Shown: in pieces, positions 1-58,693 of the stretch
Layout of the letters: each line of letters begins with the position of its first letter
Position numbering within the stretch: the stretch's first letter is position 1
Source: Octopus sinensis
Taxonomy: Eukaryota
Assembly (NCBI RefSeq): GCF_006345805.1
Contig: NW_021832982.1
Location: 1 to 59,172 of the forward strand
Reading direction: 5' to 3'
DNA: 59,172 nucleotides
Notes under the pieces: generated by a model
What the model was told of the DNA's origin: nothing
Database searches by the model: none
Seen by the model: only the letters and a program-made list of their open reading frames with translations
Position numbers and translations under genes: made by a program

Positions 1-562
1 GAGGGGTGAGGATGATAAGGGTGATGCTGGTGGTGGTTGGTGTGGTGGTAGGGTGCTTCTGGTGGAGTTAGTGGTGGTAGTGGTGGTGGTGGTGGTGCGA
101 GCGTGGTGGAGGCGGCTGCGGTATTTGTGGTGGGGGCTTGATGGAAGCTGTTGTGGCGGTGGTGGTGACGATTGTGTTAATGGTGGTGGCGATGGTGATG
201 GTGATGATGGTGGGAGAGGGAGAGACGGTGGGGGGTGTCAGTGGTGGTGGAGTTAGAGGTGGTAATGATTGTGGTGGCGGAGGCTTAAGTGGTGGTGGTT
301 GTGGAGGTGTACTTGTAACCACGATGGTAGAGGTATAATGGTAGAAGCTTGCAATAATGGTAGTTGTAACAGTGAGTTGATAATAATGGTGGAATTTCTA
401 ACGATGATGATGATGATGATGATGATAATGACAATAATGATGATGATGATGATGATAATGACGATGATGATGATGATGATGACAATGATGGTGATGATAA
501 TGATGGTGATGGTGATGATAATGATAACGATGATGATGATCATGATCATGATGATGACAATA

Positions 563-3052: not shown

Positions 3053-3321
3053 ACAGTTCTATATTTAAGAGATGAAGAATTATGTACAGTATTTACATTA
3101 TTTACACTCGACGGATATTTGTCCTCATCTTGTTTGTTGTTAACACAACGTTTCGGTTGATATACCCTCTAGCCTTCTTCAGATGCCTTGGGGAAATTTC
3201 GAACCTGGGTTCTCATTCCTAAGGTATTTTTCGATGTTATCATTATTGTTACTGTTCAGGTCACTGCTTGGAATCGAACTCGGAATCTTGAGGTTAGTAG
3301 CCTGCGCTCTTAACACTACGC
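3053..3321 (-). mobile_element. tRNA-derived SINE with hammerhead-like motif, copy 1
   Basis: Minus strand reads GGCGTAGTGTTAAGAGCGCAGGCTACTAACCTCAAGATTCCGAGTTCGATTCC (A/B boxes), then the body, then CTGAAGAA..CCGAAACGTT. Homologous to 3503-3712. Confidence 0.8.
3142..3187 (-). ncRNA. Minimal type I hammerhead-like motif
   Basis: GGCAU-CUGAAGA-A-GGCUA..CAACC-GAA-ACGU-U-GUGUU. Core boxes are present; stem I relies on wobble pairs and stem II is degenerate. Confidence 0.6.
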
Positions 3322-3334
3322 CGTATGTATACAC

Positions 3335-3413
<79 letters not shown>

Positions 3414-3502
3414 TATATGTATGTATGTATGTATGTATATGTATAAAACGATTAAGATAGAAATAAAACAGGATAAGCATATATGTGTCTCTGTGACTGT
3501 GT

Positions 3503-3712
3503 GTGTAGTGGTTAAGAGCGCGGGCTACTAACCCCAAAATACCGAGTTCAATTCCAAGCAGTGACAATAATAATAATATCGAAAAATACCTTAGGAATGA
3601 GAACCCAGGTTCGAAATTTCCCCAAGGCACCTGAAGAAAGCTGGAGAGTAAATCAACCGAAACGTTGTGCTAGCAACAAACAAGAGGAGGACAAATATCT
3701 ATCAAATGTAAA
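3503..3712 (+). mobile_element. tRNA-derived SINE with hammerhead-like motif, copy 2
   Basis: GTGTAGTGGTTAAGAGCGCGGGCTACTAACCCC..GAGTTCAATTCC head; same body as copy 1. The tail is interrupted by a Helitron. Confidence 0.8.
3626..3671 (+). ncRNA. Minimal type I hammerhead-like motif
   Basis: GGCAC-CUGAAGA-A-AGCUG..CAACC-GAA-ACGU-U-GUGCU. Stem I GGCAC/GUGCU pairs. Confidence 0.62.
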
Positions 3713-4219
3713 TCTATATATATAAAACTGTAGTTGTATGAGTGTCTGTCCCCTTCGATTTAGATTCCATAACTCCTCACATTTTGCGGTTGCGTGCAGT
3801 TTAACCAAATTCGGGTATCTTATAGTCGTGATTCATATCGAGCCCGTCTGGCTATTAGCGCGCGTCAACGATGAGTCTACGATTTTAAAAATAATTTAAC
3901 ATCATTTTTTATTCCATTTTAATGCATAATTTCGTGTGTGTTCGATGGCGGCGGAGTTGGCGTCCACGCTCACAGCTGCACCTGTTGCTTCTCCCCCTCC
4001 CTCCCTCGTGAAGCTGTGGGGAAGGGAGTGTAAAGAAATCAACGTCGTAAAGCGTTGTCAAGGAGACCAGCGTTCTTTTAGACAACGACTTCATGGCTTG
4101 AAGACACCAAACAGAAATGGCTAAGAAAGCCCGAATTGGCATAAGGGAAGTAACTCTCTAAAAATGCTTATATAGTTATTTCCCTTACAAACCCGAGCAA
4201 CGCCGGGCGATACTGCTAG
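3713..4219 (+). mobile_element. Non-autonomous Helitron
   Basis: 5' TC terminus; 3' hairpin CCCGAGCAACGCCGGG then CTAG. Inserted between A and T with no TSD; the SINE tail resumes at 4220. Confidence 0.88.
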
Positions 4220-12785: not shown

Positions 12786-13295
12786 CACGTGCGCATGTGC
12801 GAGTGCGCGCGCGCGTATTTATAAGTATATGTGTGTATAGTTCTCCATCTTTTAATGATGTCTTTGTTGTTCGATCAACTGAATAACCTGTTCATTGAAC
12901 AATCAAAGTGGCTGAGTATTCCACAGACAAGTATAATCTTAATATAATTTTCAGAGAGACTCAGCGTGACAATTCTTGGATTACATTGCATAATCCACCC
13001 GATGGGCTTAAATGCAGTTTCTTTCAACCCAAGATCGCTACTATGGTATGGGGCAATTCGGTTTTATTCTCTTACTCTTTTTACTTGTTTCAGTCATTTC
13101 ACTGCGGCAATGCTGGAGCACCGCCTTTACTCGAACAAATATCGACCCCAGGACTTATTCTATCGGTCACTTTTGCCGAACCGACTAGTTACGGGGACGT
13201 AAACACACCGCCATCGGTTGTCAAGCGATGGTGTGGGGGACAAACACTGACACACACAATACACACACACACACACACACACATACACACACACA

Positions 13296-13342
<47 letters not shown>

Positions 13343-13424
13343 GGTCCCGGGTTGAGTCGGGGTTAACCACAGTAAATAAGGTACTCAATACATAGCAGAG
13401 TAAATTAATTTATTTTATAGAAGG

Positions 13425-13475
13425 AGCTTCTACAGGACTAGAACTGTTTCATTCAAATGAAATCATCAGGAAGCT
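13425..13475 (-). ncRNA. Type I hammerhead ribozyme (complete topology)
   Basis: AGCUUC-CUGAUGA-UUUCAUUUGAAU-GAA-ACAG-uucuaguc-CUGU-A-GAAGCU. 6-bp stem I, intact core, 4-bp stem III and GUA cleavage triplet; stem II is weak. Confidence 0.8.
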
Positions 13476-13522
13476 TCCTGATGATTTCATTTGAATGAAC
13501 AGTTTCTAGTCCTGTAGAAGCT
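13472..13522 (+). ncRNA. Mirror-image hammerhead copy (GAAA box one A short)
   Basis: AGCUUC-CUGAUGA-..-GAACAG-uuucuaguc-CUGUA-GAAGCU. Confidence 0.6.
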
Positions 13523-13552
13523 CCTTCTATAAAATAAATCAATTTACTCTGC

Positions 13553-13607
<55 letters not shown>

Positions 13608-33587: not shown

Positions 33588-33676
<89 letters not shown>

Positions 33677-34228
33677 TTCCCTAATGCAGTACGAGATAGT
33701 GGCTCTCAATGCTTCTGATCTTAACTGATTGGACGTGTTATCATGTGCATTGTTTTGTCTTGGTATAAAACATGGACTACAGCAAATATTCTGCTCAATA
33801 CCACCGATTTGCTTGTCAGTTGTTTGACCTTAACCAGTTGAGCATGTCCCTTAGTGGCTGACGATATGTGCATCTGATCACGAGCAGAAGTAGTGAAGGA
33901 GCATCATAAACGTGTGTTGAAAGGAATTCTTACAGGTTTGGATAATTCACCTTTGGAAACATGGGTGGTTCATTCAACATCCTTAAACAATCCTTATTCA
34001 AGGACCTTTGAGCGGGATGGGCTACTCGACCAGAAGAAAATTCTAACTGGGCCCTACCTGCAAGGTCATGCGCTGTTTATCTTGATATGAGATCACCATG
34101 TCGCGCACATATGGTTGTGATGCATGTGCCTGGTGTACCCTTATCAGACGGGTAGTCATGATGGGTATAACGGGTTTTGTATATTTTACCCCAGTGTCAC
34201 TTTGATGGCATGCACTGCTCTCTTACTC
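33677..34228 (+). mobile_element. About 555-bp non-coding element in a (TAA)n array, copy 1
   Basis: Three highly similar copies in the window, each starting directly after (TAA)n. Confidence 0.85.
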
Positions 34229-34232
34229 AATA

Positions 34233-34291
<59 letters not shown>

Positions 34292-34334
34292 AATAATAAT
34301 AATAATAATAATATTAATAATAATAATAATAATA

Positions 34335-34408
<74 letters not shown>

Positions 34409-34416
34409 GGCGGTGG

Positions 34417-34471
<55 letters not shown>

Positions 34472-34552
34472 GTTGATGATGGTGATGGTGATGGTGATGG
34501 TGATGATGACGATGATGATGATGATGATGATGATAATAATAATGATAATAAT

Positions 34553-35795
34553 ATTCCACTTGCTGTTCGTGGACGACTTGAAGTTATTCACAAAAAGTGA
34601 GACAGAACTTGACAGCCTAGTCCAGTTTGTGCGGATTTTCTCCACTGATATTAAGATGGAGTTTGGACTCTCAAAATGTGCTACGATGGTGATGAGATGA
34701 GGAAAGCTTGTCAGGATAGAAGGCATAGGGTTGCCAAGTGGTGAAATGATGAAGGCAATTCAACCTCAGTCAAGCTGTAAATAACTGGAAATACTTGAAG
34801 CAGATGGAATTAAGCACAACATGAAGGAAAAAGAGTACCTGCGGCGAGTGAGAAAAATACTGACAACATGAAGGAAAAAGAGTACCTGCGGCGAGTGAGA
34901 AAAATACTGACAACATGAAGGAAAAAGAGTACCTGCGGCGAGTGAGAAAAATACTGACAACATGAAGGAAAAAGAGTACCTGCGGCGAGTGAGAAAAATA
35001 CTGACAACATGAAGGAAAAGAGTACCTGCGGCGAGTGAGAAAAATACTGACAACATGAAGAAAAAGAGTACCTGCGGGTGAGAAAAATACTGACAACATG
35101 AAGGAAAAGAGTACCTGCGCGAGTGAGAAAATACTGACAACATGAAGGAAAAAGAGTACCTGCGGCGAGTGAGAAAAATACTGGCTTCAAAGCAGAAGAC
35201 AACAAACATATTTTCGGCAATAAACTTGTGCGCAGTCGCAGGAGTTCGGTATGGCGCTGGAATCCTGAAGTGGACAGAAGATGAGCTAAAGGAGATTAAC
35301 AGGAAGTCAAGAAAGACTTTAGGCAAAGATCATGCCTCCATATTGATATGACTGTCCCGATCGATATATACGTACCTGTCAAGACCTACCAAAAACTGAG
35401 CAAGTTCTTGTAATAGAAATTAGCAAAATGTGGAACCTGAAGACTAAAACAATACCTGTTGTCATAGGTGCCCTGGGAATGATAGGAAAAGGGGCTGATT
35501 GCTACCTAGCTCAGATACCAGGAAACCCCAGAATGGCAGAAATTCAAAAGATAGTGCTCTAGGGAACTGCCCATATCCTTCGCAAAATACTGTCTATGTA
35601 ATCTCAAATTTTAAAACAAACACGTAATTTTCTTATGGTTTCTTAAACATTCTCTAGAACAACACTATGTACAAAACCAAATATATGGCACCCTCCGCAT
35701 AACACAAACATGAACTTCTAACTTGTTGTCTCTTGGGGTATCTGGGTAAAACTTGGAGCCAACTTGTATAAACGCAAAGCATAAGTCAAACATAA
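34553..35795 (+). pseudogene. R4/Dong-like non-LTR retrotransposon fragment (RT C-half fused to RLE C-terminus, 3' UTR, TAA tail)
   Basis: LLFVDDLKLF..DIKMEFGLSKCA, AINLCAVAGVRYGAGILKW and EISKMWNLKTKTIPVVIGALG..GTAHILRKILSM*; contains stops and frameshifts. Confidence 0.88.
34817..35183 (+). repeat. 47-bp tandem repeat, 8 copies, inside the RT remnant
   Basis: CAACATGAAGGAAAAAGAGTACCTGCGGCGAGTGAGAAAAATACTGA starting at 34817, 34864, 34911, 34958, 35005, 35051, 35094 and 35138. Confidence 0.97.
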
Positions 35796-35830
35796 AATAA
35801 TAATAATAATGATAATAATAATAATAATAA

Positions 35831-36386
35831 ATGCCCTGATGCAGTACCAGGCAGTGGCTCTCATGGCTTCTGATCTTAACTGATTGGAAGTGTTATCATG
35901 TACATTGTTTTATCTTGGTATAAAAGATGGGCTACAGCAAATATTCTGCTCAATACCACAGATTTGCTTGTCAGTTGTTTGATCTTAACCAGTTGAGCAT
36001 GTCCCTTAGTGGCTGACGATATGTGCATCTCTGATCACGAGCAGAAGTAATGGGGGAGCATCATGGCCATGTGTTGAGAAGGATTCTTTGGGGTTTGAAT
36101 AATTCACCTCTGGAAACATGGGTGTTTCGTTCAACGTCCTTAAACAACCCTTATTCAGGGACCTTTTGAGCGGGATGGGTTACTCGATCTGAAGAAAATT
36201 CTAACTGGGCTCCACCTGCAAGGTCATGTGCTGTTTATCTTGATATGAGATCACCATGTCGCGCACATATGGTTGTGATGCATGTGCCTGGTGTACCCTT
36301 ATCAGACGGGTAGTCATGATGGGTATACTGGGCTTTGTATATTTTACCCCAGTGTCACTTTGATGGCATGCTCTGCTCGCTCACTC
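35831..36386 (+). mobile_element. About 555-bp non-coding element in a (TAA)n array, copy 2
   Basis: Same sequence as 33677-34228, with TAA repeats on both sides. Confidence 0.85.
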
Positions 36387-36446
36387 AATAATAATAATAA
36401 TAACAACAACAACAACAACAAAAACAACAATAACAATAACAATAAC

Positions 36447-57605: not shown

Positions 57606-57640
<35 letters not shown>

Positions 57641-57681
57641 AATAAAATAATATAATAATAATAATAATAATAATAAAAATT

Positions 57682-58155
57682 TGCCCTGATGCAGTACCAG
57701 GCAGTGGCTCTCATGGCTTCTGATCTTAACTGATTGGAAGTGTTATCATGTACATTGTTTTGTCTTGGTATAAAAGATGGGCTACAGCAAATATTCTGCT
57801 CAATACCACAAATTTGCTCGTCAGTTGTTTGACCGTAACCAGTTGAGCATGTCCCTTAGTGGCTGACGTTATGTGCATCTCTGATCACAAGCAGAAGTAG
57901 TGGGGGAGTATCATAACCGTGTGTTGAGAGGTACTGTTTGGGGTTTGAATAATTCACCTCTGGAAACATGGGTGTTTCGTTCAACATCCTTAAACAACCC
58001 TTATTCAGAGACCTTTTGAGCAGGATGGGCTACTCGACCAGAAGAAAATTCTAACTGGGCCCCACCTGCAAGGTCATGTGCTGTTTATATTGATACGAGA
58101 TCACCATGTCGCGCACATATGGTTGTGATGCATGTGCCTGGTGTACCCTTATCAG
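57682..58155 (+). mobile_element. About 555-bp TAA-associated element, copy 3, 3'-truncated into (GAA)n
   Basis: Same start as copies 1 and 2 after (TAA)n; breaks at CCCTTATCAGA. Confidence 0.85.
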
Positions 58156-58693
58156 AAGAAGAAGAAGAAAAAGAAGAAGAAGAAGGAGGAGGAGAAGAAG
58201 AAGAAGAAGAAGGAGGAGGAGGAGGAGGAGGAGGAGAAGAAGAAGAAGAAGAAGAAGAAGAAGAGAAGAAGAAGAAGAAGAAGAAGAAGAAGAAGAAGAA
58301 GAAGGAGAAGAAGAAGTGCCGAAAAGATTGAGAATGAAGAGTATGGAAAGACAGATGAAGCAGAAGCATAAGAAGAGGATTGGGAGTAGGACGACTGGGG
58401 GGGAAAGGAAGACAAGCGGGGGGTAAATAAATGGAGAAAGAAGAAGAAAAGGAAGAAGGATGAGGAAGGGGCAGAAAAGAGGATATACAGAAGAAGAAGC
58501 AAGAAAAAGAAAGAAGGTAACGATGAAAAAGAGGACAGTTCCGTTCAACATTGCTTTCACGTATTGATTCCTTTACGAGGAGCTTTATTTATTTGATCCA
58601 AGCAGGCAGAGTGACAAACGGTTTAGTGACGAAGAGAAATGGAGAAGCCATATTCGTAGAATCATTTAAGCAGAGCTTTATTTACTTATTTGT

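Follow-up and report, generated by a model that had tools for sequence, protein, structure and literature searches.

The origin of a palindrome carrying a hammerhead ribozyme motif on each strand

The DNA analysed here, referred to as the window, is a stretch of 59,172 nt from Octopus sinensis, in which a small palindrome set in (TA)n carries a hammerhead motif on either strand. The question raised by this locus is what such a unit is and how it is formed. The preliminary description proposed either a snap-back product of reverse transcription, initiated at helix I, or a tiny ambisense, viroid-like retrozyme whose transcript switches between a hairpin and a ribozyme. Comparison with the sister copies of the same genome indicates that the object is ordinary retroelement debris, not a singular ribozyme switch.

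The palindrome in the window

The axis falls between positions 13473 and 13474, and the two arms, 86 nt each, occupy positions 13388-13473 and 13474-13559. A deletion, an insertion and a mismatch set them apart; over the central 26 bp they match perfectly, and this core is the longest non-simple perfect palindrome of the window, where the runner-up measures 10 bp. The spacerless palindrome is real, as first described, and the greater length of one arm and the (TA)n surroundings are both visible in the sequence. The one-sided tail measures 48 nt in this copy versus about 70 nt in typical ones. The short arm is a long outlier, stopping at another TA-like patch, while most copies stop near +66 at AATAAA. 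The features are collected in Table 1; signed positions, there and in the text, are counted from the axis along the arm, +1 being position 13473 on the minus strand.

Table 1. Features of the palindromic unit, with their positions in the window and the evidence on which each is based.
Feature	Position	Strand	Basis
(TA)n target, left part	13295..13339		(TA)4 after the long arm in 88/90 sister copies of the tail-picked sample
Long arm: pLTR of a Penelope-like element, from putative RNA start (-2) to distal end (+134; +138 with the ATAT common to the target)	13336..13475	-	match to L031
Type I hammerhead motif, 51 nt; predicted cut 13431/13430	13425..13475	-	fold and conservation
AGCT overlap of the arms: palindrome axis, first bases of helix I, putative capped RNA 5' end	13472..13475		junction counts, extra G, upstream TATA in sister copies
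Short arm, -2 to +86, with hammerhead copy missing one A of GAAA	13472..13559	+	arm comparison
Tail, on one arm only, 48 nt	13340..13387	-	arm comparison
(TA)n target, right part	13553..13606		both unit ends adjoin (TA)n

A fold-back artefact of sequencing or assembly would be compatible with the two indels of the plus arm and with the location of the unit on an unplaced contig of 59 kb. In the plus hammerhead one A is missing from GAAA, as previously noticed, and a T is inserted five bases further on; these indels are possibly assembly errors, and similar ones are present in other copies. Against an artefact stand the stereotyped, asymmetric ends found at hundreds of loci, their recurrence in a second family, and short-read contigs with identical ends. 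In contigs from two DNA runs, loose (TA)n ends are found at +66 and +138; since the same two ends, together with (TA)n, appear there, the arm ends are not an artefact of this assembly. Moreover, the 28-nt centre of the palindrome has 240 exact copies in the genome versus none for a reversed control, which answers positively the question whether other loci invert at the same centre. An artefact is regarded as practically excluded by these data.

The parent element

The 134-nt arm was used to search its own 2.7-Gb genome, and all of the 40 matches scored (the best 40 of 581 candidates) were identical to it. The long arm is also 100% identical, over 141 nt, to the 5' pseudo-LTR (pLTR) of a full-length copy, L031, which is made up of a 5' pLTR, an RT ORF, a long 3'UTR and a 3' pLTR; a 154-nt repeat is found at 2763 and 8971, with the ORF between. 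The ORF of L031 contains the motifs RWR (an RWK variant), DKT and YRDD as well as a C-terminal GIY-YIG, and the last frame holds CxxC and CxH; a CxCX5C linker was found in the sister copy L251. In Pfam searches the GIY-YIG endonuclease of L031 remained below cut-off (E 0.07), though the motif is clear by eye, and the RT part matched no family. Matches of the element RT in a protein atlas fall in eukaryotic RT-like clusters.

These motifs match the published description of the Hydra clade of Penelope-like elements (PLEs), including a supplement alignment compared by eye (PMC8557442), and the parent thus appears to be a young member of this clade. Exact short strings of the octopus families, both the present one and a second described below, were searched in the supplement of that paper and not found. 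By eye, a related family resembles Hydra-1_Obim, in keeping with an octopus as the probable host. As in insertions of endonuclease-bearing (EN+) PLEs, the pLTR flanks a RT-GIY-YIG ORF in the full-length copy, and an inverted truncated copy, a one-sided tail and a hammerhead within the pLTR are present. The unit of the window is almost certainly a PLE insertion stub. The earlier suggestion that it represents PLE pLTRs in inverted arrangement, made during reverse transcription, is borne out by the identity to L031 and by the sister copies. Genome-wide, the tail motif was counted 3077 times, the hammerhead core of one subfamily 578 times and the pLTR-ORF junction 54 times.

The hammerhead motif

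The minus-strand motif is a complete type I hammerhead, as claimed at the outset, formed by helix I (AGCUUC/GAAGCU), CUGAUGA, GAAA and helix III (ACAG/CUGU), with cleavage predicted after GUA. Its minimum free energy fold has the type I topology, with helix II mispaired across one core base. The core elements CUGANGA, GAAA and UH and the three helices are kept under variation, and the young family offers no compensatory pair changes; a Rfam scan of the window gave no match at the gathering score. The base of helix II closes with a U.U pair, and helix III consists of 4 bp with an 8-nt loop. An axolotl motif with a comparable U.U showed weak activity, 22% being cleaved in one hour as a monomer (PMC7229834). 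Loop III centres on CUAG, possibly allowing a dimer of the kind described for metazoan PLE motifs in PMC4209133, where palindromic loops III and dual motifs on opposite strands, 100-700 bp apart, are reported.

Recurrent subfamily changes were found at none of the 38 core and stem positions versus 4 of the 13 free positions (N7 and loop II only; Fisher p 0.003). Since these changes avoid core and stems, they are a sign of selection on the hammerhead in the donors. The motif appears to form the first 51 nt of the element RNA. None of 90 long arms starts at the predicted ribozyme cut site, consistent with the copying of an uncleaved template; nine symmetric junctions lie 2 nt from this site, a faint hint of cleaved templates.

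Arm ends in sister copies

Two samples were analysed, after removal of duplicate loci: 67 loci with 116 arms, taken from the first 100 hammerhead-core matches listed, and 87 loci chosen by the tail alone, with 90 long and 49 short arms (the tail-picked sample). The arms have two fixed distal sites, at +134-138 and at about +66. In the first sample 58/116 arms end at +130 or beyond, and 55/116 at +50..75; in the second, 46/49 short arms end at +58..74, at AATAAA.

At the opposite side, starts accumulate at -4..+5, where 63/116 arms of the first sample and 36/90 long and 32/49 short arms of the second are found. The same pile-up is seen in seven lone arms read by eye (L089, L093, L099, L111, L124, L129, L131), used in place of the counts of solo arms (13 long, 10 short), which are inflated by partners lying outside the fetched stretch. 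In six direct junctions (L164, L167, L171, L176, L199, L201) a unit that ends in leader or ORF is directly joined to the next, whose first base is at -2 or -1. Many templates or cDNAs do pass the start site, because 35/90 long arms run upstream past -20. Arm ends are identical in long-range inverted copies, and therefore belong to the insertion reaction. Initiation of reverse transcription at helix I, as first proposed, is not what the copies indicate: it is from the (TA)n junctions (+134-138 and about +66) that the arms are begun, and at -4..+5 that they stop.

At the +66 end, short arms such as those of L043, L046, L048, L145 and L147 show repeated ATAA units or runs of A, which suggests slippage, or a telomerase-like addition of repeats, during priming. 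At a further locus, L378 (G000:C1:61056200-61057200), the junction holds several copies of the first 10-15 nt of the putative RNA, as if the RT had re-primed repeatedly at the RNA 5' end.

Junctions near the axis are highly variable, with 30 different sequences among 34 inverted junctions (one locus being counted twice), which argues against propagation as a unit. This bears on the proposal that the palindrome is itself transcribed and propagates on its own, as an ambisense retrozyme or a MITE-like element that alternates between hairpin and ribozyme. Many near-identical copies and a hammerhead on both strands would suit such an element, as would the putative RNA contigs, where pLTR depth is far above ORF depth, as it is in DNA, and the existence of true retrozyme-like tandem arrays deriving from the same pLTR (L194 and L208, see below). 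However, besides the variety of the centres, which are re-made at each insertion, the short-arm ends are variable, the TATA promoter is missing, and long-range inverted copies have the same arm ends. The unit is a single head-to-head pair, not a series of head-to-tail tandem monomers such as defines non-LTR retrozymes, and, differently from a viroid-like ambisense RNA, it is a linear genomic insertion whose plus core lacks one A in the assembly. For a transcript across the whole unit the predicted hairpin has -139 kcal/mol, compared with -9 for the ribozyme motif, so that the hairpin overrides both ribozyme folds and no balanced switch is expected. The ambisense retrozyme is thus a very improbable reading. 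Among the putative RNA contigs, one has a fold-back loose end near the axis and another a junction back to the axis; they were not counted as evidence of expression.

The junction at helix I

Symmetric junctions were counted by using exact patterns of 22, 24 and 28 nt. There are 240 at the axis AGCT, versus 9 at AGCT +46 and 1 at CTAG +33, both internal 4-bp palindromes contained within both arms; a 4-bp palindrome alone is therefore insufficient to produce a junction. Within the axis only AGCT is needed, because two subfamilies carry TAGCTT there.

Uncut copies have a TATAAAT whose first base lies 29 nt ahead of -2. Along the promoter TATAAATG, recurrent changes affect 0/7 TATA positions versus 10/21 spacer positions (p 0.03). 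In addition, the letter preceding AGCTTCC is G in 35/62 cut, non-symmetric arms versus 1/98 uncut copies; when the 12 arms whose partner could supply the G are removed, 23/50 are left (p 0.001), of which a few more are possibly templated. Over the whole genome, G or C precedes the start 1022 times, with 71 G versus 29 C among the first 100 listed. Reading of 30 such loci, which partly overlap the preceding tally, gave 12 G explicable by the partner, one natural variant, and, among the letters left without explanation, 9 G and 2 C. In L1, full-length 5' junctions are marked by an extra G, which comes from copying of the cap (PMC11702581). These features lead us to place the putative capped start of the element RNA at -2, about 30 nt behind TATAAA.

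The stop might instead reflect a structural or processing boundary, i.e. a RT stall or a 3' splice site at helix I, with a non-templated C added by terminal transferase activity. Reverse transcriptases do add non-templated bases at template ends, and an AG is found at -2/-1. An intron is reported to end at helix I in the Penelope element of D. virilis (PMC4209133). Against this explanation, the arms retain the AG and the letters that precede the extra G are different from copy to copy, as is not expected of a spliced exon or leader; a stall would be expected on the 3' side of helix I, and a conserved TATA is located at the right distance. Splice-site and spliced-leader readings of the start were rejected on account of the variable upstream letters, and a boundary of this kind is on the whole improbable.

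One cDNA or two

In 8/44 inverted pairs it is the short arm that extends further upstream, by 7 nt or more, and in four of these eight the whole hammerhead is contained in the short arm only; in some pairs each arm holds sequence absent from its partner. In L376 the extra G is present on both arms, with one letter between them; facing G/G pairs are 4 among the 100 matches listed, L376 being the one read. In L047 (G000:C1:76370638-76373665) all changes, 7/7, are A>G and are confined to the short arm (p about 1e-10 after correction), which we take to be the mark expected of ADAR-edited sense RNA. This arm looks like a hyper-edited RNA fixed in the genome by reverse transcription; it is the one such case among 258 arms, and none was found in 139 further arms.

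Subfamily markers of the two arms were compared over 108 pairs, and 54 were shared and 8 discordant, several of the latter at alignment edges; one private change is shared by both arms (L053). Since markers are nearly always shared, both arms come from one donor, or from one RNA read twice. Shared markers are also predicted by copy-back, and count in favor of a snap-back model, in which one cDNA reaches the 5' end of the RNA, bends back at AGCT and serves as its own template until the second target strand is captured at an AT-rich patch. The perfect symmetric junction is, with its 240 instances, the commonest single form, and self-priming has been proposed from junction palindromes (PMC3846280). 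The copy in the window is perfectly symmetric and as such cannot discriminate between models of formation. On the other hand, a loop-less fold is sterically impossible, and lone short arms, the 8/44 mutually non-nested pairs, the G on both arms of L376 (with 4 facing G/G among 100 listed) and the arm-specific A>G changes require a second cDNA, copied from sense RNA. Simple snap-back copying, one of the two readings originally offered, is contradicted by the non-nested pairs, by L376 and by L047; it is unlikely as the general route, and may account for some symmetric copies, that of the window included. Asymmetric pairs could partly derive from later deletions in unstable palindromes.

The reading based on two cDNAs fits the biochemistry of an Anolis PLE, for which both target strands are cut and extended in vitro, two internal start sites bound the tail, the RNA template is uncleaved and a dimer is predicted (PMC11167929).

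A model for the formation of the palindromes

Two target-primed cDNAs, running off the capped 5' end of the RNA and joined at AGCT, are the probable source of these units. The model builds on what is read directly from the copies, namely the identity and copy number of the element, the two fixed distal ends, the proximal pile-up on the base that opens helix I, the extra G and the variety of the junctions. The GIY-YIG endonuclease would cut the (TA)n target, and both strands of the cut target would each prime a short cDNA on the start of the element RNA, at +138 and at about +66, through TA microhomology. Each cDNA would then run off the capped RNA 5' end at -2, the cap being presumably copied as C and read as the extra G. 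The two cDNA ends would meet at the self-complementary AGCT, where a 4-bp annealing, or end-joining, followed by fill-in, may complete the insertion. The product would be a promoterless, dead-end stub, from which the TATA is left out. The hammerhead on each strand would be a by-product of the ribozyme occupying nt 1-51 of an RNA which is uncleaved when copied.

In a broader and rather doubtful version, the pLTR would be a true U3-R-U5 LTR, in which a TATA precedes a capped RNA that opens with the hammerhead, AATAAA lies at +60 and the 5' leader contains the priming sites. Two target-primed strong-stop cDNAs would be made by a dimeric RT; their transfer to the 3' pLTR would generate long and partial-tandem copies, and failed transfer would generate palindromes. 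Retroviral minus-strand strong-stop DNA is a short run-off cDNA from the RNA 5' end, to which the present arms can be likened; to our knowledge, neither a tRNA primer nor a RNase H is known for PLEs. Were this version true, PLEs would add retrovirus-like strand transfer to target priming, and the hammerhead, lying next to the cap, would serve as a switch for decapping or for RNA dimerisation.

A second family and other hammerhead loci

The same anatomy is shown by a second family, which has 48% protein identity to the first and a largely unrelated pLTR sequence, and supports the generality of dead-end palindromes. Its hammerhead core was counted 2755 times in the genome. Among the first 100 matches listed, 15 head-to-head pairs lie at most 35 nt apart, 10 with gaps of 18-24 nt, and 104 exact symmetric junctions were found at the CTAG opening its extended helix I. 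Arms end at +67 (AATAAA) and +138. The TATA is weaker and non-consensus; an initiator-like CCATTCT is located at -19..-13, where one full-length copy starts, and no extra G was found in the 12 junctions read. Several members of this Hydra-clade family (L239-L250) have open ORFs of 705-712 aa and were apparently active recently.

Two loci, L194 (G000:C16:42874000-42878800) and L208 (G000:C9:87418500-87424500), contain tandem arrays, with units of about 248 and 422 bp respectively, of the TATA, hammerhead and ORF start of the first family, flipped head to head in mid-array; judged by their sequence, they are retrozyme-like arrays derived from a PLE pLTR with the TATA kept. A separate hammerhead family (L286-L315, L248), with 1362 exact cores, forms tandem arrays of about 480 bp, often with a central head-to-head inversion, and has a palindrome at the 5' strand of helix I. 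It was considered as a test of the model and discarded, being organized in tandem arrays.

Within the window, a head-to-head inverted pair is found at about 3100-3713, with CTGAAGA...GAAA cores at 3182 (minus) and 3631 (plus). Over this region the pair is 75% alike; it may represent an older insertion of the PLE type. Positions 33629-36410 and 57636-58156 are pieces of a repeat in common with L032 (88-91% identity), and a 47-bp tandem repeat, in 8 copies, is located at 34816-35183.

Comparison with known systems

Inverted pLTRs, tails and junction palindromes of EN+ PLEs are already published (PMC3846280, PMC8557442), as are back-to-back hammerheads. Inverted and tandem products are called unexplained in PMC8557442, and self-priming on an antisense template was proposed for inverted products in 2013 (PMC3846280), a route that the present copies disfavour. 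The proposed link of the junction to a capped RNA start, the evidence for two sense-templated cDNAs and the cap run-off or strong-stop reading were not found in the open-licence literature searched. In the thousands of young sister copies the PLE insertion reaction has left a fossil record, which points to two sense-templated cDNAs off a capped RNA and bears on how PLEs build mirror-image ends. The copies yield exact coordinates, in two families, for the putative RNA start and for two priming sites, and the question can thereby be tested directly; they also put the hammerhead at the apparent extreme 5' end of the RNA, a concrete lead on its role. Hundreds of scattered perfect hairpins could also feed RNA editing or small-RNA silencing.

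Like the inverted pLTR insertions with tails described for EN+ PLEs (PMC8557442, PMC3846280), the present units have a head-to-head, 5'-truncated inverted copy, a tail at one end, a junction palindrome and a microsatellite target. They differ in being about 200 bp long and present in thousands of copies, with a tail of about 70 nt (30-40 in the published ones) and a junction fixed at a site with TATA and cap-like marks. The parent shares with Hydra-clade PLEs (Craig et al. 2021, PMC8557442) the RWK-like, DKT and YRDD motifs, the CxCX5C linker, the C-terminal GIY-YIG with CxxC and CxH, a canonical hammerhead and the (TA)n target; it is about 6.4 kb long, with a long simple-repeat 3'UTR, whereas the published elements are mostly under 3 kb. 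Compared with the PLE hammerheads of Cervera and de la Pena 2014 (PMC4209133), the type I motif in the pLTR, the opposite-strand pairs and the palindromic loop III are in common, whereas here a longer helix III (4 bp, 8-nt loop) and a U.U closure of helix II are found and the motif apparently occupies nt 1-51 of the RNA.

The Anolis Poseidon element PAc, studied in vitro (PMC11167929), is similar in the extension of both strands, the two internal start sites bounding the tail and the uncleaved template; inverted junctions and 5'-end run-off are not addressed in the part of that paper covered. In L1 twin priming (PMC11702581) the second target strand likewise primes a second cDNA, and a cap-derived G is found, but a non-overlapping upstream segment is inverted, while here both cDNAs would copy the same segment. 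Finally, non-LTR retrozymes (PMC7229834; bioRxiv 10.64898/2026.07.22.740005) are, like the unit of the window, small, non-coding, hammerhead-bearing and PLE-derived; they form head-to-tail arrays giving circRNA, whereas the unit described here is a single head-to-head pair without a promoter.
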